A stretch of 28,737 nucleotides of DNA. Origin: an uncultured virus (IMG/VR IMGVR_UViG_2643221865_000003). Lineage: Duplodnaviria > Heunggongvirae > Uroviricota > Caudoviricetes. Each line of letters begins with the position of its first letter. Position 1 is the first letter of the stretch. A program made the translations under genes and the position numbers. Positions 2,755 through 28,737 of this stretch are shown here, in pieces. A model generated the notes under the pieces. It was not told where the DNA came from. It saw nothing but the letters and a program-made list of their open reading frames with translations, and searched no databases. Where the stretch lies: IMG/VR virus record IMGVR_UViG_2643221865_000003, one strand, 5' to 3'.

Positions 2755-2766
2755 GCCGCACACTTA
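2755..2766 (+). promoter_or_regulatory. Class A motif GCCGCACACTTA, 7 nt before ATG 2774
   Basis: One of 10 copies of GCC(A/G)CACAC(C/T)TA; no RBS before the ATG. Confidence 0.75.
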
Positions 2767-2773
2767 TGCCGTC

Positions 2774-3472
2774 ATGACTCAGACCTCCGACTACGACGCC
2801 CAGAACAACGTCGTCAGGAACCCCAACGGTGACGGCACCTTCCACGAGCACACCCGCGACCTCGGCGGGGTGACGTTGGAGCTGAAGAAGTACCGGACCG
2901 GCTCGATCACCGCACAGGACTTCTCGGAGCTGGCCGCAGCCGCCCGCGACCGTCTCGGCATCGCCGTGTCGGTGTTCGGACGTGAGGATGTGATCGGCGT
3001 CGCCGGCGACTACACGTCCACCCCTAGTGAGGCGGAGAAGGTGTGGGAGCAGTTCCGTGACGGGTCCGCCACCCGCACCATGGTCGACATGATGACGGAG
3101 GCAGGGAACGAAGCTGTCGCTGACGGCATCCGTGAGCTGCGTGAGTCGCTCACCACAGGCACTCTGACGGATGAGGATGACCGCTGGGTTCCTGGGACGT
3201 TGGATTTCACGACCGAGTCGATGACCGCTGCGGACTTCGCTGAGGCTGCCCGACAGGACCGTCTGCTGAATGGTGAGGTGGTGGTGTTCTTCCAGAGAGC
3301 CGACTTCGACTCTCACCTCGCGGACGCCGGCCTGTCCAACGTGGACGCCGATGACGCGTGGGCGAAGTTCCGGTCGAACGGCGGCAACGGGGCGGTCGAG
3401 GATGCCATGGTGTACGCCGGGTCCGACTCCCTCCCCGTCCTCATCTCCGACATCGCTGGGAGCCTCCGATGA
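2774..3472 (+). CDS. Hypothetical acidic protein with N-terminal RNPNGDGTF tag and internal domain duplication
   Basis: GC3-biased codons; repeat TGSITAQDF..VSVFGREDV..VWEQFR vs TESMTAADF..VVFFQRADF..AWAKFR. Confidence 0.75.
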   Translation: MTQTSDYDAQNNVVRNPNGDGTFHEHTRDLGGVTLELKKYRTGSITAQDFSELAAAARDRLGIAVSVFGREDVIGVAGDYTSTPSEAEKVWEQFRDGSATRTMVDMMTEAGNEAVADGIRELRESLTTGTLTDEDDRWVPGTLDFTTESMTAADFAEAARQDRLLNGEVVVFFQRADFDSHLADAGLSNVDADDAWAKFRSNGGNGAVEDAMVYAGSDSLPVLISDIAGSLR

Positions 3473-4155
3473 CATACGAGTACGACGCCCGGAACGGTGT
3501 GATCCGCAACCCGAACGGTGACGGCACCTTCCACGGTCGCGAGACCACGCCGGCCGCCGACGGCACCGTGAAGAAGGTCCACGGCGAGTGGATGATCCGG
3601 GAAGCACCCCGTTTCGACGCCCGCCCCGCCGGCACCCACCTCCAGGACAACCTGGACGACTACGGTCACCCGTTGGACGGCAGCCCCGACGGCGGTCTCG
3701 ACTTCTTCGTCGAGACCATCCGCGACGGGCACCTGTCCCGCGGCGTCCCCGGCGCCGGCCCGGTCGACTCGATCCGCGCATGGCGATGGTGGTCCGGCCT
3801 GAACGGACGCCTGAACGACGACGCCCGCTATCAGTCGTTCTCCGACGGAGTCGGCGGAGCGGCCGTGTGCCTGTCCCTGTCGAAGCTTCGGGAGCAGTGG
3901 ACCATTTCCGATGAGGACGCCCGCGCATACGCGACCGGGCTGAAGGCAGCGCCGGTGCATCTGATGACGTCAGCGGAGCAGATCCTCCAGACGAAGCGTG
4001 TCACGAAAGAGGACCGGGAGCGCTGGATCGCTTCGGTGCACCAGTCGGTTGACCCCGAGAACTGGCGCGGCCAGTGGGTTGCCGCGGCGGCCCTGTCGAA
4101 GACCGATGAATGGTGGGGGTTCCGGGACAACCTGGAACGCACCGTCCTCGGCTGA
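3469..4155 (+). CDS. Hypothetical protein with N-terminal RNPNGDGTF tag (228 aa)
   Basis: ATGA overlap with upstream stop places the start at 3469; N-terminus YDARNGVIRNPNGDGTFH matches the upstream gene. Confidence 0.75.
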   Translation: MTYEYDARNGVIRNPNGDGTFHGRETTPAADGTVKKVHGEWMIREAPRFDARPAGTHLQDNLDDYGHPLDGSPDGGLDFFVETIRDGHLSRGVPGAGPVDSIRAWRWWSGLNGRLNDDARYQSFSDGVGGAAVCLSLSKLREQWTISDEDARAYATGLKAAPVHLMTSAEQILQTKRVTKEDRERWIASVHQSVDPENWRGQWVAAAALSKTDEWWGFRDNLERTVLG

Positions 4156-4167
4156 GCCGCACACTTA
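4156..4167 (+). promoter_or_regulatory. Class A motif GCCGCACACTTA, 7 nt before ATG 4175
   Basis: Identical 12-mer to 2755-2766; fills the short intergenic gap. Confidence 0.75.
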
Positions 4168-4174
4168 CGACGTC

Positions 4175-4732
4175 ATGACCAAGAGACACGACGACGGCCG
4201 CCTCCGCGACGCGAACGGCCAGTACGCCATCGACCCTGCAGCGAACCAGGTCCCCACCGGCCTGCTCACCCAGACTGAGCTCCCCCACCGTCAGCACATC
4301 CAGTCGGTGTGCAAGGAAGCCGGCCTGGAGATGATGGTCGGTGTGTTCGAGGTGATCGACGACCGTGAAGAGGTCGCCACCGTCGCTTTCCAGCGGGTCA
4401 CCACGGACGACATCGACGGGTTCTACGACGAGTTCATCGGCCCGGCTGTCGACAAGATCGAAGCTGAGCTGGTGCGAGACAACCCGAACGAGGACGACTT
4501 CCCCACCGCGGACCTCGACGCTGTCCGCACCCACCTGCACCAGGTGTCGGACGAAGCCGGCCTCGACGTCATGAAGGGGTTCTTCGACGTCCTCGTCGAC
4601 CGTGAGACCATCGCCGATGACGTCCTCACCGGCGTCACCGTCGAGCATGTGGAAGCGTTCTACAGCTGGCGGGTCGCTCCGGCGATCGGTCAGGTCCAGA
4701 ACTCCCTCTCCGCCACCTCCGACCGGTTCTGA
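4175..4732 (+). CDS. Hypothetical acidic protein with RDANGQY tag and two tandem ~60-aa repeats (185 aa)
   Basis: Start reassigned to the ATG after the motif; repeats HIQSVCKEAGLEMM..DREEVA..FY..IGPA and HLHQVSDEAGLDVM..DRETIA..FY..VAPA. Confidence 0.75.
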   Translation: MTKRHDDGRLRDANGQYAIDPAANQVPTGLLTQTELPHRQHIQSVCKEAGLEMMVGVFEVIDDREEVATVAFQRVTTDDIDGFYDEFIGPAVDKIEAELVRDNPNEDDFPTADLDAVRTHLHQVSDEAGLDVMKGFFDVLVDRETIADDVLTGVTVEHVEAFYSWRVAPAIGQVQNSLSATSDRF

Positions 4733-4758
4733 CGAACGAGGGTGAGCACCCTCTGACA

Positions 4759-4770
4759 GCCGCACACCTA
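4759..4770 (+). promoter_or_regulatory. Class A motif GCCGCACACCTA, preceded by small hairpin 4738-4753
   Basis: 12-mer match; here followed by a leader with AGGAG RBS and ATG 4804. Confidence 0.7.
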
Positions 4771-4803
4771 AGTTCGACACCCACGAACTGAGGAGAACAG
4801 CAC

Positions 4804-5559
4804 ATGCCCCGTCAGGGAGACAACAACGTCCAGGCTGCGAAGCCCGGCTTCAACGGGACGGACGGTTCATTCGCGTCCCCGATCCCCTCCGCTGACGAGC
4901 TCGGCGGCCTCCACCGGACACCGAAGCAGCACATCACCGTCAGCATGCTCGTCGAAGCTCCGGCCGTCGACCAGATCGAACTGCCGGAATGGCCGGAGCA
5001 GCTGCCGTTCCCGACGATCGACGTCGACAACGGCAGTGAGCACGAGGGCCTGCAAACGTACATCTCTGTTGGTGGGGCGTCCGCTCACTTCTACGGCAAC
5101 GCGGCCTACAGCGTCGAGGACTCCATCGAGAACTCGTCCGACGGTCAGGGCGACGGTGACTGGGACGGCGTCGCCAACCCCGCCACCCTGCAGCAGATCC
5201 GCCGGTTCGGTCGTGCCGTGCACCGCCGGAACCTCGCCATCGTGGCAAGCGCCACCGAGGAGCTCCTGAACGACGAGAGCGCGAAGGCGCAGTTGATCGC
5301 CGCAGCGTCCGGCCGCCCCGTCGAGCTCTCAGCCACCACCATCGACAGGTCCACCGAACGAGCAGCCCGCATCCTCGAGGTGGTTTCCGGCAGCGGAGTG
5401 TCCCGTCAGGGCGACGCGACCGAGGACGACACCTCCGCGCTTCAGGATGCTCTCTCCGACCTGATGCACTACGCCCACGCCCGCGGCATCGACTGGGGAA
5501 CCGTGTCCGACAGCGCCAAGTACATGTTCGAGGACGAGATCCACGACCCGACCATCTGA
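4804..5559 (+). CDS. Hypothetical acidic protein with GTDGSF tag; C-terminal helical DALSDLMHYA..GIDW motif
   Basis: AGGAG RBS; C-terminus loosely resembles small all-alpha (MazG-like) domains of mobile elements (weak, by eye). Confidence 0.7.
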   Translation: MPRQGDNNVQAAKPGFNGTDGSFASPIPSADELGGLHRTPKQHITVSMLVEAPAVDQIELPEWPEQLPFPTIDVDNGSEHEGLQTYISVGGASAHFYGNAAYSVEDSIENSSDGQGDGDWDGVANPATLQQIRRFGRAVHRRNLAIVASATEELLNDESAKAQLIAAASGRPVELSATTIDRSTERAARILEVVSGSGVSRQGDATEDDTSALQDALSDLMHYAHARGIDWGTVSDSAKYMFEDEIHDPTI

Positions 5560-5576
5560 GCCACCCGCGTCCTGCC

Positions 5577-5612
5577 AAACGCCGCACCTGTCCTGAAAGG
5601 GGTGCGGCGTTT
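5577..5612 (+). terminator. Terminator-like hairpin
   Basis: AAACGCCGCACC / GGTGCGGCGTTT 12-bp inverted repeat after stop 5559. Confidence 0.65.
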
Positions 5613-5656
5613 CGCTGCCGGCGGGCGACCGATCCAGCCCCAAGTGGCCATTCGCC

Positions 5657-5668
5657 GCCACATACCTA
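5657..5668 (+). promoter_or_regulatory. Class A motif variant GCCACATACCTA
   Basis: One mismatch to consensus; 34 nt upstream of GTG 5703. Confidence 0.55.
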
Positions 5669-5702
5669 CAACTCGGACGCAATTCAGCGGGACGACAAAG
5701 GG

Positions 5703-8700
5703 GTGGGCAACGTGGGTGGATCGAGTAGCAAGGCAAGTTTCGGCAGATGGGGTGCGGGGCTCGCCGCCCTCATCGTCGGGGCGCTCGTCGCAGGGCTCGT
5801 TGTCGTGTCACCAGGCAGCGCCGCAATCGCTGCCGAATCCTGTGTCCCCTTGGCGATGATCGCCTTCCGCGGCACCGGCGAAGGCCAGGTTCAGTTCGAC
5901 ACCGAGTGGGATGGCCAGGCCTACAGCTACGTCCCGTTCAAGCACATCAAGAACGCAAGAAATGACCTCAACGGACAACGTCGCGCCACTGGCTGGGAAG
6001 GCATAAGGCTTCACGAACTGCTCCGCGGATTCGAAGCTATTGAGCCCGTCCTGGCGGAATCCATTCCACTCATCGAGATGGGCAATGTCAATGACCCGAG
6101 GACCCTGACGGAAAACGGGTATCCCGCCGACGTTAGCTACGACTTCTGGTCCGCAGGCGAAGGAGTCAAAGAGGGCCGAGCCAGAATTGAAGCCTTCCAA
6201 GCTCAACAACCCGCGCCGTGCGCTCCAACCAAGTTCATCGCCATCGGATACTCCCAGGGAGCGATGGCAGCGCGCGCCCTCATCCAGCAGAAGCCGACAT
6301 GGTTCGCTGGGAGCGTTCTCGTTGCAGACCCATACCAGAAACCGAACGCCGAAGGTGTGTCGGGCGAAGGAGCTTGGGGCAACGGAATCGCTCGGACAGG
6401 ATTGATGATCGCGCTTACTCGCCTAGCCTCCGCCAAGCCAAGCGCCACGGCCCTCTCTCGCTTGGACAGTTACTACGACACCTCAGCAACGAAAACCTCG
6501 TACTGCCACAAGATCGACCTGGTCTGCACCAGTGTGCCTTGGGGTGGCGCAGACCACCTGACCTACTTTCACGATCGGGATGAGCGGACCGCTCAGGCCG
6601 CTGAGCTCGCCACGCTAGTCAAGAGGTTTACATCCACGCCACCAGTACCCGAAGCAGTCTTCCCGAACCGGAAGCTCGACGTGATGGTCTTCTTTGACAC
6701 GACGAAGCCCTCGGACCTACCCAAGATCGCGGCCATGCTCGAAGCAAACCGCAAGAAGTTCACCACAGGACGCGACATTCGGGTCGGCGTCGTGGAGATG
6801 GGTACGGGATGGCCGTGGCTGGCGCCCACGACCGACTTCGACGCGGTCCTCAACTTCATCAAGACCTACAAAGCGCCGACATCAACACAAGGAGACTGGC
6901 TCGACATGATCGAACACCAGGTGTTCGGTAAATGGGCCTATGACACCCAGCTCTTCAGGGCAGACGCTGACAGGGCGATCCTCGCGATTGGCGACCGCGG
7001 CGACCAGGCGGTCAGGTCGGAAAACTCTCTTTACTCCTGGACGCTCGAAACCTTCGTCGCAGACATTGTGGGCAGGTCGAAGGGGACCGGCAGATCGGTT
7101 GGCGGAAGTGGTGGGCGTCGCATTGCTGCACCAGTAACCAGGTTCTATGGCGAACCGGACGTTGGCAAGAAGACTGGAGGATCCTCAGCCACGCTTGAGC
7201 CCGGAGACACAGCGGGGCTGACCTCGATCATTGACCGCGTAGTATCGCCGCCAGTGGCCGCCATCACAGTCCCTGCGCTCGCACTTTTCGGCGGCAAGGG
7301 CGGCGGAACCGGGAGCGCTGCGGGCGCCCCATCCGTTGCCGCTGCGGTGCCGGTTTCCTCTGAAGGTTCTACTGGATCCAGCACCCTGACCACGGAGTAC
7401 TCAGTTGACGGCGCACCGTTCTCAAAGCCAGTACTCAGCGCCGTTGCGACTTTGAACATCATCCAACCGGGAGAGCACGAAGTAACGACCCGTGTGACAG
7501 ATGCGAGCGGCGACAGCTCCACCACAACTGAGACCGTCCTTGTTCTGGATCAAGAATCCCTGCGTGAGGCAGAGGAGTCGGTCGCCCGGTCTCTCGCTGC
7601 GTCAGTTTCTTGGAGTGGGACCGGCGCGACGGTTCAGGGAGGAACTATCAGCGCCATCCCCGGAACAAACAGATTGATCTCGGCACGCATCATCAAGGGG
7701 GCCGAGAGTGCCGACCTCAGTAGCGCCGCGGCAAGCGTGATCGACTTGGGGTACTCCAAGCCGGCCGGGACGGACGGAGTGGCGTCGATAGCGTTCAGCC
7801 TCCCAACAGGAATCCCTCGTGGGGAGTACACCATCCAAGTTGCTGACATGAATGGCAGGTTCGCACTCCTACCATTCTCCGCCCCGGTCCAGCTGTTCAC
7901 GGGCTCAGCCCTGCCTGCGGTCTCAGGTAGTCACGTGGTCGGGGCGACACTGACAGCGGCGCCCGGCCTCGGCTGGGCACCCACTGCGACGTCGTTCACC
8001 TATCAGTGGCTGCGCGACGGCGTTGCAATTGCGGGCGCAACGAAGAGTTCCTACCTCCAGACAGCTGCCGATGCGGGGAAGGCTTTGTCGGTATCGGTGA
8101 CGGCGATCAAGGCCGGCTATGTCAGTCGGTCCTTCAACTCGATACCCACGGTCACGGCAAATGGCACCTTCACCGGATCAGCGACTCCAACCGTCACGGG
8201 CACTCACTCAGTCGGGAAGCTCCTAACTGCCGCGCCAGCGGTCGGCTGGGCACCCACTCCGACGTCGTACACGTATCAATGGCTCCGCGCCGGGTCCGCA
8301 ATCACTGGGGCGACAGCCCAGACCTACACGCAGTCGATCGCCGATCTTGGCTCAGCGATCTCCGTTCGCATGACAGCACTGAAGGCCGGGTACACGAGCA
8401 AGTCGTCGATCTCCACTGCTGTCATCACTGCAAAGGGGATCTTCGCTGGCTCGGCGTTGCCCACTGTCACCGGGACGCACACTGTCGGAAATACCCTGAC
8501 CGCTGCGCTCGGGGCTGGCTGGTCGCCTACCGCGACGTCGTACACGTATCAGTGGCTCCGTGCTGGGGTCGCGATCTCTGGCGCCACGAGCAACACCTAC
8601 AAGCAAGCCGTGGCCGACGCGGGAAAGACGATTGCGGTCACAATTACGGCCGTCAAGTCTGGGTACGCGAGCAGGGCACTAACCTCCGCAGCAGCGACGA

Positions 8701-9260
8701 CTGGATATGGATCTTTCGCCGGGGCTACCGTCCCCACTGTGATCGGCACGCATGCCGTCGGAAAGACGCTGACTGCTGTACCTGCTTCCGGGTGGTCGCC
8801 AGCTGCGACGTCGTACACGTATCAGTGGCTCCGCGCTGGAACTCCGATTGCGGGTGCGACAGCCTTGACCTACACCCAGACAGCTACCGACGCCGGCAAG
8901 GCTCTTTCGGTGCGTGCGGTGGCGGTTAGGGCCGGTTACACGAGCAAGTCGTCAACCTCGACCGCCACTATCACTGCCAAGGGCACATTCGCCGGAACCG
9001 CACTGCCTGCCGTGAAGGGAACCAGGAAGGTCGGTTCGACTCTGACCGCAGCACCTGGGTCTGGCTGGTCGCCCGCAGCAACGTCGTACTCGTACCAGTG
9101 GCTCCGTGCGGGGGTTGCAATCCCTCGGGCGACATCTTCCTCGTACAAGCAGGTGTCCGCAGACCTCGGGAGGGTCATCACGGTGAAGGTCACCACGGAT
9201 AAGGCCGGATACACGAGCAAGTCCCGGACTTCGGCGAGGGCCGCAACGACAACGAGGTGA
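5703..9260 (+). CDS. Secreted multidomain protein: cutinase-like alpha/beta hydrolase + vWA-like + PKD/Ig-like + five 91-aa Ig-like repeats
   Basis: Signal peptide (..SAAIAA-ES); FRGTGE, GYSQG, CHKIDLVC and DHLTY cutinase motifs; DVMVFFDTT/IRVGVV/FRADADRAILAIGD vWA-like strands; YQWLR repeats. Confidence 0.8.
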   Translation: MGNVGGSSSKASFGRWGAGLAALIVGALVAGLVVVSPGSAAIAAESCVPLAMIAFRGTGEGQVQFDTEWDGQAYSYVPFKHIKNARNDLNGQRRATGWEGIRLHELLRGFEAIEPVLAESIPLIEMGNVNDPRTLTENGYPADVSYDFWSAGEGVKEGRARIEAFQAQQPAPCAPTKFIAIGYSQGAMAARALIQQKPTWFAGSVLVADPYQKPNAEGVSGEGAWGNGIARTGLMIALTRLASAKPSATALSRLDSYYDTSATKTSYCHKIDLVCTSVPWGGADHLTYFHDRDERTAQAAELATLVKRFTSTPPVPEAVFPNRKLDVMVFFDTTKPSDLPKIAAMLEANRKKFTTGRDIRVGVVEMGTGWPWLAPTTDFDAVLNFIKTYKAPTSTQGDWLDMIEHQVFGKWAYDTQLFRADADRAILAIGDRGDQAVRSENSLYSWTLETFVADIVGRSKGTGRSVGGSGGRRIAAPVTRFYGEPDVGKKTGGSSATLEPGDTAGLTSIIDRVVSPPVAAITVPALALFGGKGGGTGSAAGAPSVAAAVPVSSEGSTGSSTLTTEYSVDGAPFSKPVLSAVATLNIIQPGEHEVTTRVTDASGDSSTTTETVLVLDQESLREAEESVARSLAASVSWSGTGATVQGGTISAIPGTNRLISARIIKGAESADLSSAAASVIDLGYSKPAGTDGVASIAFSLPTGIPRGEYTIQVADMNGRFALLPFSAPVQLFTGSALPAVSGSHVVGATLTAAPGLGWAPTATSFTYQWLRDGVAIAGATKSSYLQTAADAGKALSVSVTAIKAGYVSRSFNSIPTVTANGTFTGSATPTVTGTHSVGKLLTAAPAVGWAPTPTSYTYQWLRAGSAITGATAQTYTQSIADLGSAISVRMTALKAGYTSKSSISTAVITAKGIFAGSALPTVTGTHTVGNTLTAALGAGWSPTATSYTYQWLRAGVAISGATSNTYKQAVADAGKTIAVTITAVKSGYASRALTSAAATTGYGSFAGATVPTVIGTHAVGKTLTAVPASGWSPAATSYTYQWLRAGTPIAGATALTYTQTATDAGKALSVRAVAVRAGYTSKSSTSTATITAKGTFAGTALPAVKGTRKVGSTLTAAPGSGWSPAATSYSYQWLRAGVAIPRATSSSYKQVSADLGRVITVKVTTDKAGYTSKSRTSARAATTTR
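7890..9250 (+). repeat. Five coding tandem repeats, period 273 nt (boundaries approximate)
   Basis: TA(T/C)CA(G/A)TGGCT (YQWL) starts at 8001, 8274, 8547, 8820, 9093. Confidence 0.9.
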
Positions 9261-10812: not shown

Positions 10813-10897
10813 TTTCCGCACATGTAGGTCGTGAAACTGCGAACCGAGCCCGGACGGTCCTCCCACCTCTCCCTTTTTGCCTTAGATCGGATCCACC

Positions 10898-12498: not shown

Positions 12499-12510
12499 GC
12501 CACACACCTA
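12499..12510 (+). promoter_or_regulatory. Class A motif GCCACACACCTA, 6 nt before ATG 12517
   Basis: 12-mer match; no RBS. Confidence 0.75.
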
Positions 12511-12516: not shown

Positions 12517-13545
12517 ATGCCAGAAAGCACACTCACCCGGTACAAGAACGTCGGCCTCGTCGGCAACGGCGGATGGATCGCACCCAAGGAGCACCAAGGC
12601 GCTTCCGCGCAGGTGATCGACGGTATCGTCGCAGCTCCCGCCTACCCGTTCAACGTGTTGGAGTACGAGACGGTCGGCGACGCGATCGCCCGCACCGTCC
12701 GCACTTACACCGGCAAGGACGGTGTGAAGGAGACCGTGAACACGTTCTACTCGGACGCCGTCGACGGGTTGACCACCGACCAGATGGACGCGATCCTCCG
12801 CGGAGAGGTCGCCGACGTCCGCGAGGAGATGAAGGAGCGCCTGGCTAAGGCGCACCGCGCAGCCGCTGAGCAGGAGGCTGAAGACATCACCCGGAAGCTC
12901 GGAGCTGACTGGCGTTCGATGGACGACGACGACCGGAACGAGATCGTCGAAGCGGTCATGGAGGTCGACCGTCACGACGCCGTCGGCATCCTCACCCACA
13001 TGACCGAGAAGCAGCTGTTCCGTCTCCCGCTGGGGAAGACGATCGTCGAGCAGGCTGCCGGCACCGGGATCACCGGCATCGAGTTCTTCGACGAGGCGAA
13101 CGCTGACGCTCAGGCCGCCGCCCGCCGGCAGGTTCTGCTCGGGATCTTCGCTGAGCACGGCGCCGACCCGGAGCACCCGGAGACGGTGGAGGCTGCACGC
13201 CGACTCGTCGAGGACGGCCCGAAGGACTGGTCTGAGCTCACTGTCGACGTCGCCTGGAACGGCACCCTCCACGAAGCTCGCATCCCATCAGACGAGTTCG
13301 GCCGCACCAACCCTGACGGCCGTGAGTTCGAGTTCGTCGGCGTCACCGTCATCATCCACGACCCGTACGACGGGGAGACCGTCGACGCTGTCCTCCCGAC
13401 ATTGAAGGCACGAGCCACGGACCGGAACCCGGTGACGGTCGACACTCCCGACAAGCCGGGCTCCTGGTCTGCACAGTCGGGCCGGCAGCACCGCGGCCTG
13501 ACCCCGGATGAGTTCCGAGCGTCCGCTCCCGGCGGCACGTACTGA
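12517..13545 (+). CDS. Hypothetical acidic protein with GNGGWIAPKEH tag (342 aa)
   Basis: Start reassigned to avoid overlap with 11916-12488 and to follow the motif; GC3-biased codons. Confidence 0.75.
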   Translation: MPESTLTRYKNVGLVGNGGWIAPKEHQGASAQVIDGIVAAPAYPFNVLEYETVGDAIARTVRTYTGKDGVKETVNTFYSDAVDGLTTDQMDAILRGEVADVREEMKERLAKAHRAAAEQEAEDITRKLGADWRSMDDDDRNEIVEAVMEVDRHDAVGILTHMTEKQLFRLPLGKTIVEQAAGTGITGIEFFDEANADAQAAARRQVLLGIFAEHGADPEHPETVEAARRLVEDGPKDWSELTVDVAWNGTLHEARIPSDEFGRTNPDGREFEFVGVTVIIHDPYDGETVDAVLPTLKARATDRNPVTVDTPDKPGSWSAQSGRQHRGLTPDEFRASAPGGTY

Positions 13546-14045
13546 TGAAGAACGCATTCCTGCAGGGAGCCGACGGGAAGATGGTCGGCTCTCTGCCTCA
13601 ACCGAAGTCCGCACCCGAGGTGACGCTGTCCACCGTGTACGGCGAGCAGCAGGTCACACCCGGTCGGCTGGATGCCGGCGCCCGCGAAGCGTTCCTGAAC
13701 GGGCAGTGCGTCGCGTTCGCCGCGGCCGCCGCCCGCCGGTTCAACGTGGACGAGATCGTCCTGTGCGTCGACACAGAGGATGAGTTCATCATCCACGCGC
13801 TCGTCGAAGTCGGCGGGGAACTGTTCGATGTCGACGGTGCCACCGATCAGGAATCGTTCGCTGAGGTGCACGGCCTCGACGAGGACGACTTCCGCTGGGA
13901 GCCTTGGACTGTCGCTGACCTAGACCGGTTGGCGGAGTCCGAGCTCGGGTTCACCCTGCCGGAGCAGGACGTTCAGACCGCCTCGACGATGATCGACCAG
14001 TGGCTCGAGGACGGCTTCGGACCGGAAGGGTTCCGGGAGATCTGA
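13545..14045 (+). CDS. Small protein with putative Cys-His-Asp triad (papain/transglutaminase-like fold) and QGADGKMVGS tag
   Basis: FLNGQCVAFA...IHALV...FDVDG; TGATG coupling to upstream gene. Confidence 0.65.
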   Translation: MKNAFLQGADGKMVGSLPQPKSAPEVTLSTVYGEQQVTPGRLDAGAREAFLNGQCVAFAAAAARRFNVDEIVLCVDTEDEFIIHALVEVGGELFDVDGATDQESFAEVHGLDEDDFRWEPWTVADLDRLAESELGFTLPEQDVQTASTMIDQWLEDGFGPEGFREI

Positions 14046-14581
14046 TGAGCGTCTACCTGCAGAACGCTGACGGGAAGCTGGCCGGCTCACTCCCGCAGCA
14101 GAAGTCGGCGGCTGAGGCGGAACTCGTCTCAGCGGACACCGTGACTGTGGAGATCGCTGGCGGCTCCACCTACGAACTCACCCCCGGGGTGCTGAACTTC
14201 GATGCCGAATGGGCGTTCCAATCAGGGCAGTGCATCGCTTTCGCCTCAGCCTTGTCGAAGCGGATCGGCAGCGACGACATCCTCGTGTACCTCCGCGAGG
14301 ACCGTTCAGTCATCCACGCCCTCGCGTACATGCCCATCGATGGCGGCGAAGGCGTCGCCTACGACATCGACGGGATGATGGACCTCGACTGGTACGAACG
14401 CGAGCTGAACGACAAGTACGGCGCGTACGGATGGTCGTTCGAGAGCTTCACCCCGGAGACCATCGACCTAGATTCCGACACCGGGATCGGCGCTGGTCTG
14501 CCGACCCAGAACTTCGAGATCGCAGAGTCGATGATGGACGCTTACGCGGACCTGGGCCGCTGCGATGCGATCGGCGTCTGA
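14045..14581 (+). CDS. Paralog of 13545-14045, Cys-His-Asp protein with QNADGKLAGS tag (178 aa)
   Basis: FQSGQCIAFA...IHALA...YDIDG; TGATG coupling; shared LPxQ motif near the C-terminus. Confidence 0.65.
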   Translation: MSVYLQNADGKLAGSLPQQKSAAEAELVSADTVTVEIAGGSTYELTPGVLNFDAEWAFQSGQCIAFASALSKRIGSDDILVYLREDRSVIHALAYMPIDGGEGVAYDIDGMMDLDWYERELNDKYGAYGWSFESFTPETIDLDSDTGIGAGLPTQNFEIAESMMDAYADLGRCDAIGV

Positions 14582-17021: not shown

Positions 17022-17033
17022 GCCACACACCTA
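17022..17033 (+). promoter_or_regulatory. Class A motif GCCACACACCTA, 7 nt before ATG 17041
   Basis: 12-mer match; no RBS. Confidence 0.75.
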
Positions 17034-17040: not shown

Positions 17041-17853
17041 ATGTCAGAAACCAACGACTTCCGTCTGAAGAACACCGCCCAGATCACCCCGCCCGGCGTC
17101 TCGTCCGGCCAGTACGCCACCCAGAACCTCAGCGAGACGGAGGATGCCGCGAAGCCGCAGGTCTCCGCGCTGCAGCTCCGACTCGAAGCCCTCGACCGCC
17201 AGAAGGCGGAAGCTGACCGCGCCCGTGAGGAGGTCATCGTCCAGATCATCGCTGAGCGTCTCGCCGAGGACTTCCCGAACGTCGCCCAGGTTCAGGTCAA
17301 CCTCGACGATGAGGGGTACGCCTGGTACACCGTCGCTGACATCGCCGGTGTCGAGCTGTACGACGGTATGGGCGACGACGACCTGGACTCCGAGGTGCGC
17401 CACCTCATCTACGAACTGGGCATGGAGTGGGACAACGCACGCGTCTACGACGTCCCGGCTTCCCCTGAGAAGTCGATCCTCGCTCAGATCGAGTCCGATG
17501 GCCGGATCGCCGACGAGGCGTTCCGGCGCATTCAGGGCGGCACCGCACGAGGCATCTCCCACGTGGTGAAGAACCAGTTCCCGACCGCAGAGCGGGTACG
17601 TCTGGTGTGGCACTCCACGGACTCCTCCGCTGCAGTCGAGTCGATCCTCGACAAGGACGGCAACGTCCTAATCACCGGGATCGACCTGGAAGACGGTGAG
17701 ACCGAGCTCCCTCAGGTGGACGGAATCGACTTCTACACCCACCTCGAGGACTTCTACCTGATCCAGCTGCCCTCATCCGACGAGGCCCGCTCGATCCTCC
17801 GTAGGGACCAGTTCGGCGACAACACCGACATCGTCATCTCCGAATGGGTGTGA
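17041..17853 (+). CDS. Hypothetical acidic protein with PPGVSSGQY tag and duplicated domain
   Basis: EDFPNVAQVQV..VADIAGVEL vs NQFPTAERVRL..ILDKDGNVL. Confidence 0.75.
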   Translation: MSETNDFRLKNTAQITPPGVSSGQYATQNLSETEDAAKPQVSALQLRLEALDRQKAEADRAREEVIVQIIAERLAEDFPNVAQVQVNLDDEGYAWYTVADIAGVELYDGMGDDDLDSEVRHLIYELGMEWDNARVYDVPASPEKSILAQIESDGRIADEAFRRIQGGTARGISHVVKNQFPTAERVRLVWHSTDSSAAVESILDKDGNVLITGIDLEDGETELPQVDGIDFYTHLEDFYLIQLPSSDEARSILRRDQFGDNTDIVISEWV

Positions 17854-18823: not shown

Positions 18824-18835
18824 GCCACACACCTA
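18824..18835 (+). promoter_or_regulatory. Class A motif GCCACACACCTA, 6 nt before ATG 18842
   Basis: 12-mer match; no RBS. Confidence 0.75.
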
Positions 18836-18841: not shown

Positions 18842-20506
18842 ATGTCCTCTTTCAAGCACTCACAGGCGACAGTCCTGAACCGTGAAACCGCACGCCAGCG
18901 CGAAGGCGCTGTCGCCGCCGGCGGGAAGAAGGTCGGCGGCCAGTTCGGCGCCCAGATCTTCATCGGCGGCGTCCCCGTCCAGATCTCCGGCAACCCGGAA
19001 CGCGTCGCCGCGTACCAGGAAGCGCTGCAGCAAGCCCGCTACTACGACCTCGCCGGCGAGATCCTCGGCGTCGACGACGTCGCCACCCGCCTGAAGACGA
19101 AGGAGAGCCTCGCCACCGCGAACGCCCTCATCTCCGACGAGATCAAGAACTCCGCCAACCAGAACGACTACATCGCCGTCCTCGCCGACCAAGCCGGCTA
19201 CGACCCCACCGACCCGAACACCAACACCGACGACTTCCCCGTCATGTCCGGCGTCTCCCGCTTCTACGACGCCGAGCAGTACGCCACCGTCGACCAGGCG
19301 TTCTCCGACTCCGGCCTCACCCCGGACAAGAACCTTGAAGCGTTCGACAAGGTGTTCACCGAGATGACCGACAACATCTACATGCGCGACTTCGCGCTGG
19401 GCACCGACGAGGAGACGTTCTCCAACTCCGTCCTCATCATCGAGGAAGCCGAAGGCGCGATGGCCGGCATCGACGAGGACAACCCCGCATACGCCGCCGT
19501 GATGAAGGACGGTGAGAAGCTCGCCGAGCTGCAGAACGCGTTGGCCGTCGCCGGCCTATACGGAGCGATCCGCGAGAAGTGGGAGGCGTACTCCCCGAAG
19601 CCGATCCCGAAGGAAGGACCGAACGGTGTGAAGCAGCTGTTCAGGAACGCGGACTCCATCAAGGTGGAGAACCACACCAGGTGGAACAGCGAAGGCCAGA
19701 TGACCGGCACCGGCTGGTCCACTGACCGCCGGCCCGTCGGGGAGACGAAGGCGGACGGCAGCGTCAACGCCGGCGACTCGTGGACGCCCGGGATCGACGG
19801 AGCACACATCAAGACCCGCCAGGACCTGAACGGTGACATCCTCGTCACCACTTACCACGACAATGGGCGGCCCGCGTCGGAGCTCCGCTACAAGGTGGAG
19901 AACTTCCCCCGGTTCCAGGACACGAAGGACCCGGGGGCCCGCCGCTACGCGCTGGAGAACCCGAAGCTGAACGCCGACTTCCTCAACGAAGCCGCTCGCA
20001 CCATCATCGAAGGCCGAGCCGACGGGCTGGAGCGGAAGGACGGGATCGCGTTGGAGAACATCGTGAAGCACCCGAACGTCTCCCCCAGACTCCTGAACAA
20101 CCTCGCGGAGATCTCCGACGACGGCCTGATCTTCCGGATTATGGAGTCGAAGAACATCACCCCCGAGGTGGTCGGCAACATCGTCCAGATGTTCGGTGAG
20201 GACAGCGAGGACCGGTTCATCCGGGCGCAGCGAGCTGTCGCCGAGTTCCGATACCCGCAACCGAACCGGTCCCCTGAACAGCGGGAAGAGGACCTGACGA
20301 ACGCCCGAGCCGCTGTGAGGTACGCCCAGAACGTCGACGCGGTCATGGCCAAGGGCCTGTCGTACATGTCGACCAACAAGGTGGACTCGATCGCCGGCCT
20401 CAGCTACAACACCCTGGACGCCGCCGTCGAAGGGTTCATGGGCGGTGTGGAGAAGCTCCGCGACGAGCTCCGCGAAGGCGAGACGCTCTGGGGCGCCGCG
20501 GCTTAG
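18842..20506 (+). CDS. Large hypothetical protein with GGKKVGGQF tag and short helical (HPNVSP..L..LA-type) repeats (554 aa)
   Basis: Strong GC3 bias; start follows the motif; ALENPKL, IVKHPNVSPRLLNNLA and IMESKNITPEVV repeats. Confidence 0.75.
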   Translation: MSSFKHSQATVLNRETARQREGAVAAGGKKVGGQFGAQIFIGGVPVQISGNPERVAAYQEALQQARYYDLAGEILGVDDVATRLKTKESLATANALISDEIKNSANQNDYIAVLADQAGYDPTDPNTNTDDFPVMSGVSRFYDAEQYATVDQAFSDSGLTPDKNLEAFDKVFTEMTDNIYMRDFALGTDEETFSNSVLIIEEAEGAMAGIDEDNPAYAAVMKDGEKLAELQNALAVAGLYGAIREKWEAYSPKPIPKEGPNGVKQLFRNADSIKVENHTRWNSEGQMTGTGWSTDRRPVGETKADGSVNAGDSWTPGIDGAHIKTRQDLNGDILVTTYHDNGRPASELRYKVENFPRFQDTKDPGARRYALENPKLNADFLNEAARTIIEGRADGLERKDGIALENIVKHPNVSPRLLNNLAEISDDGLIFRIMESKNITPEVVGNIVQMFGEDSEDRFIRAQRAVAEFRYPQPNRSPEQREEDLTNARAAVRYAQNVDAVMAKGLSYMSTNKVDSIAGLSYNTLDAAVEGFMGGVEKLRDELREGETLWGAAA

Positions 20507-23563: not shown

Positions 23564-23586
23564 AGGTGCCTCCTCTTCCACAACGT

Positions 23587-23638
23587 ACATGCGCGGCATG
23601 CCGCGGTTCTTCTGAGAACAGATCGCGTCCGCACATGT
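23587..23638. promoter_or_regulatory. Back-to-back class B motifs (CCGCGCATGT on -, CCGCACATGT on +)
   Basis: 23587-23596 (-) faces gene 23563; 23629-23638 (+) faces gene 23675. Confidence 0.6.
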
Positions 23639-23674
23639 TGGTTACGACCTCAACCAGCAGTCCAGGAGACATCG

Positions 23675-24193: not shown

Positions 24194-24305
24194 CAGAAAG
24201 CCTGATCGGTAAAGGTTTCTGTGGTGCGCAGGCATCAAAAGTGCCGCATGCCGCACATGGAAGTGGAGACAAAGAGCTCCAACCCGCAAGGAAACCCCCG
24301 CACCC

Positions 24306-25466: not shown

Positions 25467-25487
25467 CGAACAACGAAGGACTTCACC

Positions 25488-26195
25488 ATGCCGAAGTACA
25501 CCCCCACGAAGGACGAGCGAGCCGAGCTCGACGAGATCGCCCAGGCATCTGAGGAGGAAGCCCTCATGGAGGTCGATGACGACTACTTCTACTCGCCGCG
25601 TGAGTCCGACGACACCATCTCCTACAATTCGTCGGTGGACAAGGATGGCGGCCGGGACTGGGAGCTGTCCCTCGGCGGTGCCGATTGCGAGTACTGCGGG
25701 TACAACTACGACCGGCTGGAAGTCACCGAGAAGCTCCCCGGTGCGTTCGACGCTCAGCTCTCGGTCGGCTGCTACTCCGGTGACGGTGTCACTGACGTTC
25801 GGCTCTCGGAGCTGGCGGCGTTCGTCGACGACCTCGCAGAACGGTACACCGGGTACGGCTGGGGGCGCGCGTTCAAACAGATGGCTGCGGACATCCGCTC
25901 GTCCGAAACCGACGCCCGTGACGGCTCCGGCTACAAGAAGGTGAGCAACGCTGCCGCTGCGATCAACGCCATGCTCAACGGGTACCTCACGAAGGACCAG
26001 GCGATCGCTGCTGCAGCCGCCGCCGGCGACCCGCTGATCGGCCGCCCGTCCGAGGACCTGCACGATGATGCAGCGGCCCCTTTCACCGCTCTGGAAGAGG
26101 CGTTCCGGGACGGCGGCGAATGGTGGGACGCGCTGTACGACGACATCGTCGAGCAGACCACCGGCCCCCACCCGGTCGCCCCGTGGGTCAGCTAG
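25488..26195 (+). CDS. Hypothetical acidic protein
   Basis: GAAGGA RBS; CEYC motif; GC3-biased codons. Confidence 0.7.
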   Translation: MPKYTPTKDERAELDEIAQASEEEALMEVDDDYFYSPRESDDTISYNSSVDKDGGRDWELSLGGADCEYCGYNYDRLEVTEKLPGAFDAQLSVGCYSGDGVTDVRLSELAAFVDDLAERYTGYGWGRAFKQMAADIRSSETDARDGSGYKKVSNAAAAINAMLNGYLTKDQAIAAAAAAGDPLIGRPSEDLHDDAAAPFTALEEAFRDGGEWWDALYDDIVEQTTGPHPVAPWVS

Positions 26196-26206
26196 CCACA
26201 CACCTA
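26195..26206 (+). promoter_or_regulatory. Class A motif GCCACACACCTA, 6 nt before ATG 26213
   Basis: 12-mer match starting at the last base of the upstream stop; no RBS. Confidence 0.75.
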
Positions 26207-26212
26207 CAGTTC

Positions 26213-26908
26213 ATGCCTCAGAACCAGAAGCCGCTTCGCGGCAAGGACAAGAACATCATCCCCGGAAACGGGACCGCTGGTTCGTTCGTCGCCCAGGAGC
26301 ACGCTCCGATCGACGACGACGCCCGCCCGCAGCCTGCCGCAGAGTGGGTGCCGGCGTACGGCTCGCATGAGGAAGCCGTCCGGGACACCTTTGAGGACGT
26401 CCCCGACCGCATGAAGTGGGGCACAGCCGCCGATTACCGGTTCGCGGTCAACGAGTTCGACGCGGCGATGTGGCGAGCAGGTCTCGACAAGACGGACGCG
26501 TTCGACTTCCACGCCGAGTACTCATCCGACATGGTCCAGCGCGTTCAGCACTCCGTCGCGCTGTCCAGCGCTCGCACCGCCGCGGAGATCCGCGAACGCG
26601 AGGCCCGCGAACGCATCGAACAGGCCGAACGCGATGTCGAGGAGGCCATCCACGACCAGACCGCGTTCCTCATCCTGTTCCGGGAGCCGCGCGCCGCCGC
26701 GATCCGATGCGAGATCGTCGACCTGGGCAAAGCGGTCACCGTTGTCCCCTTGGAGATCCTCGACCGTGACGGCAACACCCTCCCGGAGACGGAGAACTGG
26801 TCCGACATGCGCCAGGCGATCTCGAACACGTACCGGGACAGCACACTGCCGAAGTCAGCCCGTTGGTCTGGCGACCGCCACGGGTCGGAGCTCACCTTCA
26901 CCTTCTGA
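26213..26908 (+). CDS. Hypothetical protein with PGNGTAGSFVAQEH tag (231 aa)
   Basis: Start follows the motif; C-terminal EPRAAAIRC..EILDRDGNTL resembles the repeated domain of 17041-17853. Confidence 0.75.
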   Translation: MPQNQKPLRGKDKNIIPGNGTAGSFVAQEHAPIDDDARPQPAAEWVPAYGSHEEAVRDTFEDVPDRMKWGTAADYRFAVNEFDAAMWRAGLDKTDAFDFHAEYSSDMVQRVQHSVALSSARTAAEIREREARERIEQAERDVEEAIHDQTAFLILFREPRAAAIRCEIVDLGKAVTVVPLEILDRDGNTLPETENWSDMRQAISNTYRDSTLPKSARWSGDRHGSELTFTF

Positions 26909-26989
26909 CCTTGTCGGCGGCCGTCAGTAACGTCGCCACATGGCTCACAGCTGACATAACTGACGGCTACGGAATCAAGGGAGGTTGAG

Positions 26990-27073
26990 ATGGGCGAGCA
27001 GCACGAAACAGGCTGGTTCACATCGCGGGAGGAGCTCGAAGAGCACCGCCTGCTGGCTGAAGAAGAGGGCTAG
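26990..27073 (+). CDS. Putative 27-aa acidic micropeptide MGEQHETGWFTSREELEEHRLLAEEEG
   Basis: Strong AGGGAGG RBS 5 nt before the ATG; class B motif at 26935-26943; below the ORF-track cutoff. Confidence 0.45.
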   Translation: MGEQHETGWFTSREELEEHRLLAEEEG

Positions 27074-27148
27074 AGCAAAACGGCGGAGATCCGCACATGT
27101 AGCTCGTACACCCGTGCCTGCACGGACCCCCGCACCCTAAGGACACCC

Positions 27149-27673
27149 ATGACGTTCGTCATCTCCACCGAGATCGGCCCCGCACCGTTGCGCGAGGACG
27201 GCACCAAGTTCCCGTTCGCGTTCATCACCGACACCGAGACGGTGTACGCCGATTCGCTGACCAGCATCGTCGCCCGGTTCATCCCCGGCTACGAGGACCT
27301 GCCGGACAGCTACGACGGTGACGTCCAGTCGTTCATCCTCCGGGTCGAGGAGGCGGCGAAGGTCGCCAACCAGCTTCAGGCGATGATCGTGACCGCCGCG
27401 ATCGACGCAGGCGAGCTGGATGTCCGCAACGCCGACGAGGACACCCTCACGGCCCTGTACGGCATCCGTGGAGGAGCCTTCGCGCCGTTCACCGGCGAGT
27501 GGGAGCACTCGATCCCGCTGGTTCTGACGTCCTCCGACTACGAGCCGTACACGAAGACGCCGGTCCCGACCGGTGAGGTGGTCCTGATCGACCCGACCGA
27601 CGAGCGTCTGTTCCTCAGCTCGCTGGAGGACGCCGGCCTCGGCGAACTGTTCATGGACGCAACCGCAGCCTGA
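27149..27673 (+). CDS. Hypothetical acidic protein
   Basis: AAGGA RBS; class B motif at 27091-27100. Confidence 0.75.
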   Translation: MTFVISTEIGPAPLREDGTKFPFAFITDTETVYADSLTSIVARFIPGYEDLPDSYDGDVQSFILRVEEAAKVANQLQAMIVTAAIDAGELDVRNADEDTLTALYGIRGGAFAPFTGEWEHSIPLVLTSSDYEPYTKTPVPTGEVVLIDPTDERLFLSSLEDAGLGELFMDATAA

Positions 27674-27842
27674 GCCGGCTACCAACACCCTTTTCTCCGC
27701 CACCGCGGAGGTGATCCGGAGCCAACCACAGCCCTGGACGTTCTCCGCCGCACGCGGAGGTTTCGTGAGACGGCGGCGCTTCGGCGCCGCCGTTCCGCAC
27801 CCCTCGCCCTGACCATCCGGGCGACACACCGGCCGTCAAACA

Positions 27843-27854
27843 GCCGCACACCTA
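27843..27854 (+). promoter_or_regulatory. Class A motif GCCGCACACCTA upstream of nrdH
   Basis: 12-mer match; followed by a 67-nt leader with GGAAGGA RBS. Confidence 0.7.
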
Positions 27855-27921
27855 CGTCTCCACAACACGACAACCCACGGCGTCCGGAAGGGCGCTTTTC
27901 TCACCTCTGGAAGGACCCACC

Positions 27922-28158
27922 ATGACCGTCACCGTTTACACCAAGCCATCCTGCGTTCAGTGCACCGCCACGTACCGCGCCCTCGACAACAAGGGCGTCG
28001 AATACGAAGTCGTCGACGTCTCGATCGACGAGAACGCGCTCGAGACCATCAAGGCTCTCGGCTACCTGCAGGCCCCCGTCGTCATCACCGACGATGACCA
28101 CTGGTCCGGCTTCAACCCCATCAAGATCGGCGAGCTCGCAGCGAAGATCGCCGCGTAG
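27922..28158 (+). CDS. nrdH: Glutaredoxin-like protein NrdH
   Basis: VTVYTKPSCVQC, LGYLQAPVV and HWSGF are signature NrdH-redoxin motifs; 78 aa. Confidence 0.93.
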   Translation: MTVTVYTKPSCVQCTATYRALDNKGVEYEVVDVSIDENALETIKALGYLQAPVVITDDDHWSGFNPIKIGELAAKIAA

Positions 28159-28176
28159 CTCTCTCCTGTCTGACCT

Positions 28177-28204
28177 GAACGCCCCGGCTTCGGCTGGGGC
28201 GTTC
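28177..28204 (+). terminator. Terminator-like hairpin after nrdH
   Basis: GAACGCCCCGGC-TTCG-GCTGGGGCGTTC. Confidence 0.7.
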
Positions 28205-28214
28205 GTCGTTGCCG

Positions 28215-28226
28215 GCCACACACCTA
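28215..28226 (+). promoter_or_regulatory. Class A motif GCCACACACCTA, 7 nt before ATG 28234
   Basis: 12-mer match; the overlapping AGGAG lies only 3 nt from the ATG. Confidence 0.75.
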
Positions 28227-28233
28227 GGAGTGC

Positions 28234-28737
28234 ATGACCGACAACAACTTCGTCAAGCTCCCCAACGGCAAGCTGAACGGCTCCGAGCCGAAGCACCAGT
28301 CAGCCGCGGAGGGCCGTACCATCAGCGCAGCCCCAACCACCAAGTACGCCACGGAGATCCTGCCCGGAGACATCCTGGTCGGCCCGAACGGCACCCGAGC
28401 CACCGTCGACAACAGCGACGAGAGCTTCGTCTTCCATGGCTGCCGGGCGATCGAGACCGAGTTCGGGACGTTGTACATCGACGACGACCTCACCTTCGAG
28501 GTGGAGCCTGAAGGCGCCCCGGCCCTCACCTACCCGGAGCGTTCCACCTACACGAAGGCCGCAGAGGATTTCGAGGCGGGCGACGTGATCGTCGCACCGT
28601 CAGGCAACCTGCTCACCATCGACGACATCGAACGCAGCTCCGTCATGCCGGGATGCCTGGCCGTGGAGAACGAGTTCGGCACGCTGTACCTCGGAGAGGA
28701 AGTGGAGTTCGAAGTCCTCGACGAGTCCGCAGCTTGA
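28234..28737 (+). CDS. Hypothetical protein with KLPNGKLNGS tag and two tandem beta-rich ~60-aa repeats
   Basis: TKYATEILPGDILV..GCRAIETEFGTLY..FEV vs TKAAEDFEAGDVIV..GCLAVENEFGTLY..FEV. Confidence 0.75.
   Translation: MTDNNFVKLPNGKLNGSEPKHQSAAEGRTISAAPTTKYATEILPGDILVGPNGTRATVDNSDESFVFHGCRAIETEFGTLYIDDDLTFEVEPEGAPALTYPERSTYTKAAEDFEAGDVIVAPSGNLLTIDDIERSSVMPGCLAVENEFGTLYLGEEVEFEVLDESAA

Follow-up and report, generated by a model that had tools for sequence, protein, structure and literature searches.

A portable N-terminal peptide tag coupled to a promoter-like DNA word in a family of actinobacterial elements

Introduction

Why should proteins with unrelated bodies, encoded at separate places on one stretch of DNA, begin with a similar short peptide and lie behind the same short DNA word? 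This question is raised by a 28,737-nucleotide stretch from an uncultured virus record (IMG/VR IMGVR_UViG_2643221865_000003), referred to here as the window, by which we mean the whole stretch that was analysed. A preliminary description had listed 11 open reading frames (ORFs) in the window with a glycine-containing peptide near the N-terminus (the tag), most of them directly behind a recurring DNA word, and had speculated that the tag sorts its carriers for transfer through a conjugation or secretion machinery or for packaging into a particle; all 11 ORFs and their peptides were found where it had placed them. The window corresponds to positions 442655-471391 of contig C5 (C5:442655-471391) of genome G000. 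C5 is 701,121 bp long with a GC content of 65.2%, the other large contigs of G000 having 67.9-69.3%, and is probably a megaplasmid or a giant conjugative element of which the window is a part. We report here that the tag is a portable, disordered N-terminal motif under protein-level selection, which is coupled to, yet separable from, a promoter-like DNA word.

Results

On C5, 53 genes (ORFs of at least 80 aa being required) start with an ATG exactly 6 nt (32 genes) or 7 nt (21 genes) after GCCRCACACYTA, and these are referred to below as the motif genes. A de novo Gibbs search over residues 2-46 of 50 of these genes yielded R-[DNK]-x-[DS]-G-[RTQ]-[FYW]-[AH] with a log-likelihood ratio (LLR) of 391; with lighter settings, the real set scored 387.6 vs. 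347-362 for four shuffles, 314-326 for three internal-window sets and 275-295 for four chromosomal N-terminal samples. The core of the tag reads [R/K]-x(2-4)-G-x-[F/Y/W], often with E-x-x-[VIL]-x-L 8-12 residues further on, and its glycine falls at residues 11-33. When scored with a leave-one-out matrix, 35 of the 50 motif genes exceeded the chromosomal 95th percentile vs. 34 of 667 other C5 genes (Fisher 1.6e-28; Mann-Whitney p = 3.6e-26), and 25/50 surpassed 95% of the shuffled versions of their own N-termini. A short pattern, [DNSGTAP]G[QRKTSEHDGN][FYW] within residues 5-46, was matched by 34/53 motif genes vs. 53/714 other C5 genes, 188/3342 chromosomal genes, 242/3404 internal windows of all proteins and 7/50 internal windows of the motif-gene proteins (Fisher 2.5e-22 for the enrichment in motif genes); this pattern was picked after the data had been seen, the unbiased checks being the leave-one-out test and an external hidden Markov model (HMM) built from tags outside G000 only. 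With this HMM, an N-terminal site of at least 4 bits was present in 11 of the 53 motif genes, as opposed to 9/785 other genes on C5 and 2/3463 on the chromosome (Fisher 2e-19 and 9e-6). These data uphold two expectations of the preliminary description, namely that the tag would stand far above chance when compared to shuffled and host N-termini and that it would be coupled to the upstream word across the replicon.

The 53 motif genes fall into 49 body families, of which 32 have a tagged member, and paralogy is therefore no explanation of the tag signal. Misassigned start sites among the control genes are no explanation either, since chromosomal proteins rarely match the tag at any position along their length. 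Portability, as had been proposed, is also evident from the addition of the tag to known domains such as ArdC and LigA, and the members of the 2774/3469 and of the 14045/28234 pairs (window ORFs are named by their start positions) are alike only in their tag regions, that is, at their 5' ends. Aromatic codons interchange at the last core position (TTC 20, TAC 9, TGG 4, TTT 1) and all four glycine codons are in use. The tag is found on genes led by a Shine-Dalgarno (SD) sequence as well (for example C5:26153, 28471, 31938 and 249240) and on translationally coupled genes; since it is also present without the DNA word, it acts at the protein level.

Structurally, the tag resides in a disordered N-terminal tail of roughly 25-45 aa, as exemplified by the AF2 model of the tagged ArdC protein encoded at C5:626469, in which aa 1-45 have a pLDDT of 31-47 and no secondary structure. 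Tagged N-termini are polar or charged without a hydrophobic run, and thus do not resemble Sec or Tat signals. All 11 tagged proteins of the window were, as described, devoid of a hydrophobic N-terminus and had a pI of 4.1-5.5, but their acidity, to which the preliminary description had drawn attention, is only mildly distinctive (median pI 4.81 in motif genes vs. 5.2 elsewhere). The tag is absent from window proteins with a signal or transmembrane segment (5703, 20556 and 24306) and from those membrane, pilin and nrdH genes that lie behind the motif, in agreement with the earlier observation that membrane and secreted proteins are not tagged. No Pfam, NCBIfam or PHROG model covers the tag in the proteins scanned from the window, C5 and the island of a second genome (G389, see below), and a search of the ESM Atlas with the tag region gave only sub-threshold leads (<= 0.86). 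Two known motifs were considered and rejected: a prepilin cleavage site (G|F...E5), since the tags lack a hydrophobic segment and E at +5 is not conserved, and the GGQ motif of release factors, since GGQ is not conserved on C5. On another contig, the protein encoded at C1:476054-476731 has a tag-like N-terminus (…HDDGRWRATLLSSPELTL; 6.6 bits to the external HMM at aa 7-28) and may be the remnant of an integrated element.

The DNA word comprises 12 bp, CC[GA]CACA followed by 4-5 variable bases, and ends 6-7 nt ahead of the ATG. In the window, CACACNTA occurs in 9 copies, all on the + strand, vs. a chance expectation of 1.07 (0/100 shuffles reached 9). C5 harbors 84 copies of CACAC[CT]TA vs. 22 on the remaining 3.84 Mb of G000, and GCCRCACACYTA-N4-7-ATG, present 43 times in G000, was found once in one of 40 related genomes and not at all in the other 39. 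Information content in the C5 motif genes is limited to gGCCrCACACCTA and a few bases around the ATG, with ATGACC favoured at the start, and neither a conserved -35 element nor an SD accompanies the word; a search for sigma-70 consensus promoters in the window was likewise negative. The word often follows directly on the stop codon of the previous gene or on a terminator, and 27/53 copies lie within 31 nt of the preceding same-strand gene. Because its last base falls at -7 or -8 from the A of the ATG, with a conserved A at -11, the word is placed as the -10 element of a leaderless transcript would be. This arrangement, with a spacing of 6 or 7 nt in 53/53 genes, no SD and no conserved -35, suggests a -10-only promoter whose transcript would start at the A of the ATG.

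Variants of the word (CCACATACCTA at 5658 and CCGCACATGTA at 10816 and 27091) and the copy ahead of nrdH are followed by a leader and then an untagged gene, and hence the word appears to be a general promoter-type signal which is not specific for tagged genes. The preliminary description had named nrdH and 5703 as genes with the motif but no tag; this stands for nrdH, and 5703 is untagged as described, but its motif is the CCACATACCTA variant followed by a leader. The CCGCACATGTA word (window 10816-10826 and 27091-27101; elsewhere CGCACATGT...) is found ahead of leadered, mostly untagged genes, including many other C5 genes; in G389 it is the predominant form, and it may represent a sister promoter class.

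The first word in the window (GCCGCACACTTA, 2755..2766, on the + strand as are all window features with coordinates in this and the next paragraph) lies directly downstream of a terminator-like hairpin of 12 pairs with a T-rich tail (2713..2740) and 7 nt before the ATG of a 232-aa ORF (2774..3472; pI 4.3, no Pfam family; tag NPNGDGTF, nt 2819-2842), whose stop overlaps (ATGA) the start of a 228-aa ORF (3469..4155; tag at nt 3508-3531), the two proteins being alike only in aa 2-22. Another GCCGCACACTTA (4156..4167) stands 7 nt before the ATG of a 185-aa ORF (4175..4732; tag RDANGQY, nt 4205-4225), the product of which matches phrog_20591 and had no tblastn match in phages. GCCGCACACCTA (4759..4770) is separated by a 33-nt SD-containing leader from a 251-aa ORF (4804..5559; tag FNGTDGSF, nt 4849-4872), and the CCACATACCTA variant (5658..5668) by its leader from the gene of the untagged, secreted 1185-aa protein (5703-9260). 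GCCACACACCTA at 12499..12510 precedes by 6 nt the ATG of a 342-aa ORF (12517..13545; tag VGNGGW, nt 12559-12576), and two variant-tagged ORFs follow in tandem, each with its start overlapping the upstream stop: one of 166 aa (13545..14045; GADGKM...SAPE) and its paralogue of 178 aa (14045..14581; NADGKL...SAAE).

Four more copies of GCCACACACCTA lie at 17022..17033, 7 nt before the ATG of a 270-aa ORF (17041..17853; tag VSSGQY, nt 17098-17115), at 18824..18835, 6 nt before that of a 554-aa ORF (18842..20506; tag KKVGGQF, nt 18926-18946), at 26195..26206, 6 nt before that of a 231-aa ORF (26213..26908; tag GTAGSF, nt 26270-26287), and at 28215..28226, 7 nt before that of a 167-aa ORF with a variant tag (28234..28737; LPNGKL...SAAE), while the word at 27843..27854 is followed by a 67-nt leader and the untagged nrdH (27922-28158). 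A word-based homologue search with the 18842 protein returned only itself, which at the limited sensitivity of this search is no proof of an orphan. The claim that each tagged ORF is either behind the motif or translationally coupled is thus borne out: GCCRCACACYTA precedes the ATG of seven by 6-7 nt, 4804 follows the motif after its SD leader, and 3469, 13545 and 14045 overlap a stop. The domain said to be shared by 17041 and 26213, on the other hand, shrank to a 9-residue match with E=0.04. The aromatic core G-x-[FYW] is present in eight of the window proteins (2774, 3469, 4175, 4804, 12517, 17041, 18842 and 26213), whereas 13545, 14045 and 28234, together with C5:559644, share the sub-variant DGK[LM]xGSxPxxxSAxE with L or M at the aromatic position; the bodies of these four proteins are only partly related.

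Beyond this genome, homologues of the tagged ArdC-N/M78 protein (C5:626469) number 2386 at E<=1e-5, and among the 120 matches listed the tag pattern was found at residues 5-60 in 89 of 119 non-self sequences vs. 1/119 in a control window, with source names including Agromyces, Microbacterium, Leucobacter, Brevibacterium, Nocardioides and Nakamurella. G-x-F is the sole conserved N-terminal feature of the ArdC alignment, with the tag lying ahead of the domain. By comparison, distant ArdCs (35 examined of the 80 loci listed, with 29-40% identity; Firmicutes, Planctomycetota and Nocardiopsis are among their sources) have only 10-20 aa ahead of the domain, and 0/35 loci show, or leave room for, a tagged extension. 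An exhaustive HMMER search with the 12517 protein gave 55 cluster representatives with the tag in 44 of 54 non-self members (family consensus M-x9-G-x5-G-x-F-x6-E-x4-L), although their alignments begin only at about residues 50-80. The tag is kept at 20-30% body identity and across bacterial families.

The tag was also conserved in other elements with an FtsK/TcpA-like ATPase. G407, a genome of the same family as G000, carries a small element (roughly the first 28 kb of a contig) which has in common with C5 the FtsK-like ATPase (45% identity), a PD-(D/E)XK protein, nrdH, a 174-aa acidic protein, ArdC and integrases; at least four of its proteins start ...RQPxGQPxGGQFA, and no copy of the DNA word was found in this element. 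In G389, from another family of the same order, CCGCACAYSTA-N5-8-ATG has 44 matches, all within 260 kb (C7:1.01-1.27 Mb), vs. 0 control matches, and 38/42 motif-preceded ORFs begin ...[RN]RQPAG[VI]xxGGQFAxEP[KR]xExxVxL vs. 9 with the pattern among 136 other ORFs of the island, these being a crude set of non-motif ORFs. The full form of the tag in these relatives is RQPAGxxxGGQFAxxxxxExxVxL. Of the four untagged exceptions in G389, three are prepilin-like, and one that was scanned carries an N_methyl motif; the three prepilin-like genes behind the DNA word are located at C7:1162717-1167800. This island and C5 have dozens of genes in common, among which are the two FtsK-like ATPases, the 174-aa protein and a sigma factor. 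In metagenomes, 26 loci with a homologue of the FtsK-like ATPase were covered, and 15 of them contained a total of 69 tagged ORFs (external HMM at least 15 bits); 37 of the 69 have the core CC[GA][CG]ACA 9-12 nt before the start codon, and 35/52 metagenomic ORFs with this core and an ATG are tagged. Viral contigs yielded 108 exact matches to the DNA word, all singletons, with the tag after 0/108. We are confident from these data that C5 is one of a family of actinobacterial elements which have FtsK/TcpA-like ATPases at their core and a two-level marking of one gene set.

Genes of the window encode an FtsK/SpoIIIE-family ATPase, membrane proteins, a 1185-aa surface protein with cutinase and Ig domains (5703), an M23 peptidase and NrdH, in addition to many acidic proteins without a Pfam, NCBIfam or PHROG family among the 29 window proteins scanned. 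The ATPase (569 aa; 68..1777, + strand) is closest to solved FtsK structures and to a 'DNA translocase coupling protein' (6o1w), is conserved with 39-46% identity in both other tag-bearing elements and has homologues at 26 metagenomic loci; it is our candidate for the reader of the tag. A second candidate partner, which might serve as an adaptor, is the conserved 174-aa acidic protein (27149..27673, + strand), whose homologues (38-39% identity) adjoin the FtsK-like gene in G407 and G389. Its AF2 model (pLDDT 66) had no Foldseek match in the PDB at E<=0.001, and a word-based homologue search, again too limited in sensitivity to prove an orphan, returned only the protein itself. C5:102730-103503 encodes a sigma-70 family factor of the element with regions 2 and 4 and a weak region 3, which shares 43-44% identity with two genes of G389, one of them in the island, and has no homologue at E<=1e-5 in G407, which lacks the motif; its presence or absence tracks the DNA word in 3/3 genomes, a lead to the effect that the element's own sigma factor possibly reads the shared promoter. 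A search for the single-subunit RNA polymerase family PF00940 gave no match, but the search controls were equally silent.

The window is flanked on C5 by genes for a 1931-aa FtsK-domain protein and a PD-(D/E)XK nuclease on its immediate upstream side and for Tad/type IV pilus-like ATPases downstream. The 1931-aa protein (C5:428543-434338) matches a TcpA-like coupling protein at residues 1309-1517; its residues 911-975 match PDB chains of 139-146 aa named 'Replicative DNA helicase' and may be an inserted intein-like segment. The Tad/type IV pilus-like genes at C5:477040-481546 include two T2SSE ATPases and a T2SSF protein. Megablast searches with 25 kb of the window gave no match in phages or plasmids.

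Most of the cargo is without annotation: no Pfam family was found in 33 of the 40 C5 motif-gene proteins scanned, nor, apart from one sub-threshold match, in the tagged proteins of the window. Identifiable motif-gene or tagged proteins of C5 and G389 comprise ArdC-N with M78/MPTase, ParB/GmrSD_N, NERD, KTSC, PGDYG, SprT-like, DUF7007 and DUF7226 proteins, a NAD-dependent DNA ligase and a weak LPD39 match; a DnaQ-like exonuclease has the DNA word and lacks the tag. The ligase (C5:552985-555090) is behind the DNA word, with its adenylation domain starting at about aa 115 and a tag-like NDGAW in the extra N-terminal segment. ArdC-type and polyvalent proteins have been proposed to be delivered with conjugative or phage DNA, and the cargo domains found here overlap the set of DNA-delivered proteins in excerpts of that study (Iyer et al. 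2017, PMC5512222). As judged from their domains, the cargo identities fit early-establishment functions.

Discussion

We speculate that the tag serves as an address on the protein, recognised by a single common partner from the element, and that it would mark establishment, anti-defence and DNA-repair proteins for the FtsK/TcpA-type conjugation machinery, either for recruitment to it or for co-transfer through it, with the shared promoter, possibly via the element's own sigma factor, switching on the tagged set together. The tagged set would then be a 'distributed' version of the polyvalent proteins that are proposed to be delivered with DNA by other conjugative elements. A sorting or transfer signal, possibly read by the FtsK ATPase, had likewise been suggested by the preliminary description. 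We assign recruitment to, or co-transfer through, the conjugation machinery a probability of roughly 0.35. Slightly less likely is the fuller proposal that the tag represents a new class of N-terminal translocation signal, whereby an FtsK/TcpA-type conjugation apparatus would deliver dozens of separately encoded anti-defence and DNA-repair proteins along with DNA into the recipient, a -10-only leaderless promoter read by the element's sigma factor would load the donor with them on cue, and this two-level addressing of DNA and peptide would define a family of giant conjugative elements not recognised before.

Several points weigh against an address for the conjugation machinery. Among the 53 motif genes, 19 miss the strict tag pattern and 13 are without even G-x-[FYW], while some tagged genes lack the DNA word, and the tag on C5 is degenerate, scoring 4-12 bits with the external HMM vs. 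15-37 bits in relatives. VirB4-like (AAA_10, PF12846) and TrwC relaxase families were not found in G000, and the transfer machinery itself is therefore not defined. Known type IV secretion system (T4SS) translocation signals are C-terminal, and FtsK/TraB-type DNA pumps are not known to move proteins. A strong shared promoter alone could provide early expression in the recipient, making protein transfer unnecessary. In addition, the co-occurrence of sigma factor and word is drawn from three genomes only, and many of the metagenomic loci that contributed the 69 tagged ORFs are near-identical to each other and hence not independent.

In kind, the tag resembles known terminal address peptides. MIX in type VI secretion, LXG in type VII secretion (T7SS) and PE/PPE in ESX systems are N-terminal markers ahead of many unrelated C-terminal bodies, and T7SS substrates are recognised by an FtsK/SpoIIIE-family ATPase; the tag likewise precedes unrelated bodies, and FtsK-family ATPases form the conserved core of the tag-bearing elements. 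These markers are, however, folded domains of 100-200 aa or have another consensus, in contrast to a disordered tag of about 25 aa, and no LXG, WXG or PE/PPE Pfam family was found in 29 window, 40 C5 motif-gene, 16 flanking C5 and 34 G389 proteins. Type III secretion, flagellar and T4SS signals are comparable in that unstructured terminal peptides address many cargos to one ATPase-coupled machine, and the likeness of the 569-aa ATPase to 6o1w parallels the coupling ATPases of T4SS; for type III secretion signals we know of no sequence consensus. As for a T4SS signal proper, the tag sits at residues 11-33 and not at the C-terminus, and the ATPase present is FtsK/TcpA-like, with the VirB4 family not found in G000.

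Another parallel lies in the ArdC-type and polyvalent 'escort' proteins, which according to excerpts of their description share ArdC-N with a metallopeptidase, ParB-like domains and weak LPD matches with the present set, are found on conjugative elements and have a proposed role in the first minutes after DNA entry (PMC5512222); passages of the same paper describe no N-terminal peptide tag. Polyvalent proteins are giant fused polypeptides, whereas here separate small proteins carry their own N-terminal tag and often their own promoter. The tagged proteins do contain effector domain families of the early phase (ArdC-N, M78/MPTase-PolyVal, ParB-like GmrSD_N and a weak LPD39), but not the fusion of at least two disparate effector domains, being mostly of 130-550 aa with 0 or 1 recognisable domain and only ArdC-N and M78 fused.

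Similarly, the DNA word resembles -10-only promoters, of which T4 late promoters (TATAAATA, read with gp55) and actinobacterial leaderless promoters are examples, and the start-associated sequences of Cluster K mycobacteriophages. In each case a single word recurs ahead of some of the genes, at a short and fixed spacing to the start and without a -35. The present word differs in sequence (CC[GA]CACA, with A at -11, then CCTA, TCTA or CACC), and start-associated sequences contain an SD, which the word does not. In the literature, most of it in the form of abstracts, we found no description of such a tag or DNA word.

Nearly as likely as reading by the conjugation machinery is that the tag is an intracellular docking motif which, with no export involved, holds the jointly expressed proteins at a single hub in any cell where the regulon is on, the hub being incoming or replicating element DNA, a component of the replisome or RNA polymerase, or an element-encoded scaffold. 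The tail is disordered and resembles a short linear motif, many identifiable bodies act on DNA (ligase, exonuclease, ArdC, ParB-like, NERD and SprT-like), the shared promoter suggests joint action after expression, and no canonical secretion apparatus was identified when VirB4-like and TrwC families were looked for in G000; on the other side, no known hub-binding motif was recognised, most bodies are without DNA-related annotation (the 33/40 motif-gene proteins lacking a Pfam family), and the tag is strictly N-terminal, whereas docking motifs may sit anywhere. The other rivals are less likely. That the tag is a degron or a processing site, leaving an early, burst-expressed set short-lived or cleaved, for instance after Gly-Gly, strikes us as improbable: an N-terminal, disordered, Gly-rich peptide coupled to one promoter class would suit such a role, and element-encoded peptidase domains do go with some cargo (M78/MPTase on ArdC), but the tag has no likeness to N-degrons that we can name, is retained by enzymes such as LigA, for which a short lifetime would seem a disadvantage, and does not conserve GG on C5, where cores include DGTF, NGQY and AGSF.

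We attach very little weight to the remaining three explanations. A feature of the RNA or the nascent peptide that assists translation of leaderless mRNAs, and is thus no protein signal, would account for the strong link of the tag with words abutting the ATG and for the preference for ATGACC; yet aromatic residues interchange despite different codons, the position of the tag ranges over codons 11 to 33, the tag occurs on SD-led and translationally coupled genes and in the G407 element without the word, and leaderless untagged genes exist, such as the pilin-like genes of G389. Equally remote is a packaging signal for a phage-like particle, an injection device or a protein compartment, which the preliminary description had entertained. 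The T4 capsid-targeting sequence and the payload signals of contractile injection systems do set a precedent, a short portable N-terminal peptide being sufficient to load many unrelated proteins, among them T4 internal proteins. However, this proposal found no support: no capsid, portal, terminase or sheath family was detected at E<=0.001 among 29 window proteins, which is where the scan for particle genes was made on C5, the only head/tail-category matches being limited to Ig-like sequence in the 5703 protein and to the M23 peptidase domain of 24306, the window had no megablast match in the phage collection, and none of the 108 word matches in viral contigs was followed by a tag. Just as hard to credit is a tag without present function, merely inherited with a promoter and 5' coding cassette that spread by duplication or recombination. 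The 2774/3469 and 14045/28234 pairs, alike only at their 5' ends, would fit such a cassette, but the tag persists in homologues with 20-30% body identity across bacterial families, its conservation is at the amino-acid and not the nucleotide level, and it is found uncoupled from the DNA word.

If the tag is a true address label, the complete 'early cargo' of a widespread and unstudied group of actinobacterial conjugative elements could be enumerated by means of a sequence rule, and most of this cargo, having no known function, would be a likely source of new anti-defence activities. Recruitment to or co-transfer through the conjugation machinery, if true, would be the first hint that FtsK/TcpA-type conjugation systems handle proteins besides DNA. 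A portable tag of roughly 25 aa and a 12-bp leaderless promoter could also become tools for high-GC Gram-positive hosts. Even if its partner is intracellular, the tag defines a large co-regulated interaction network.

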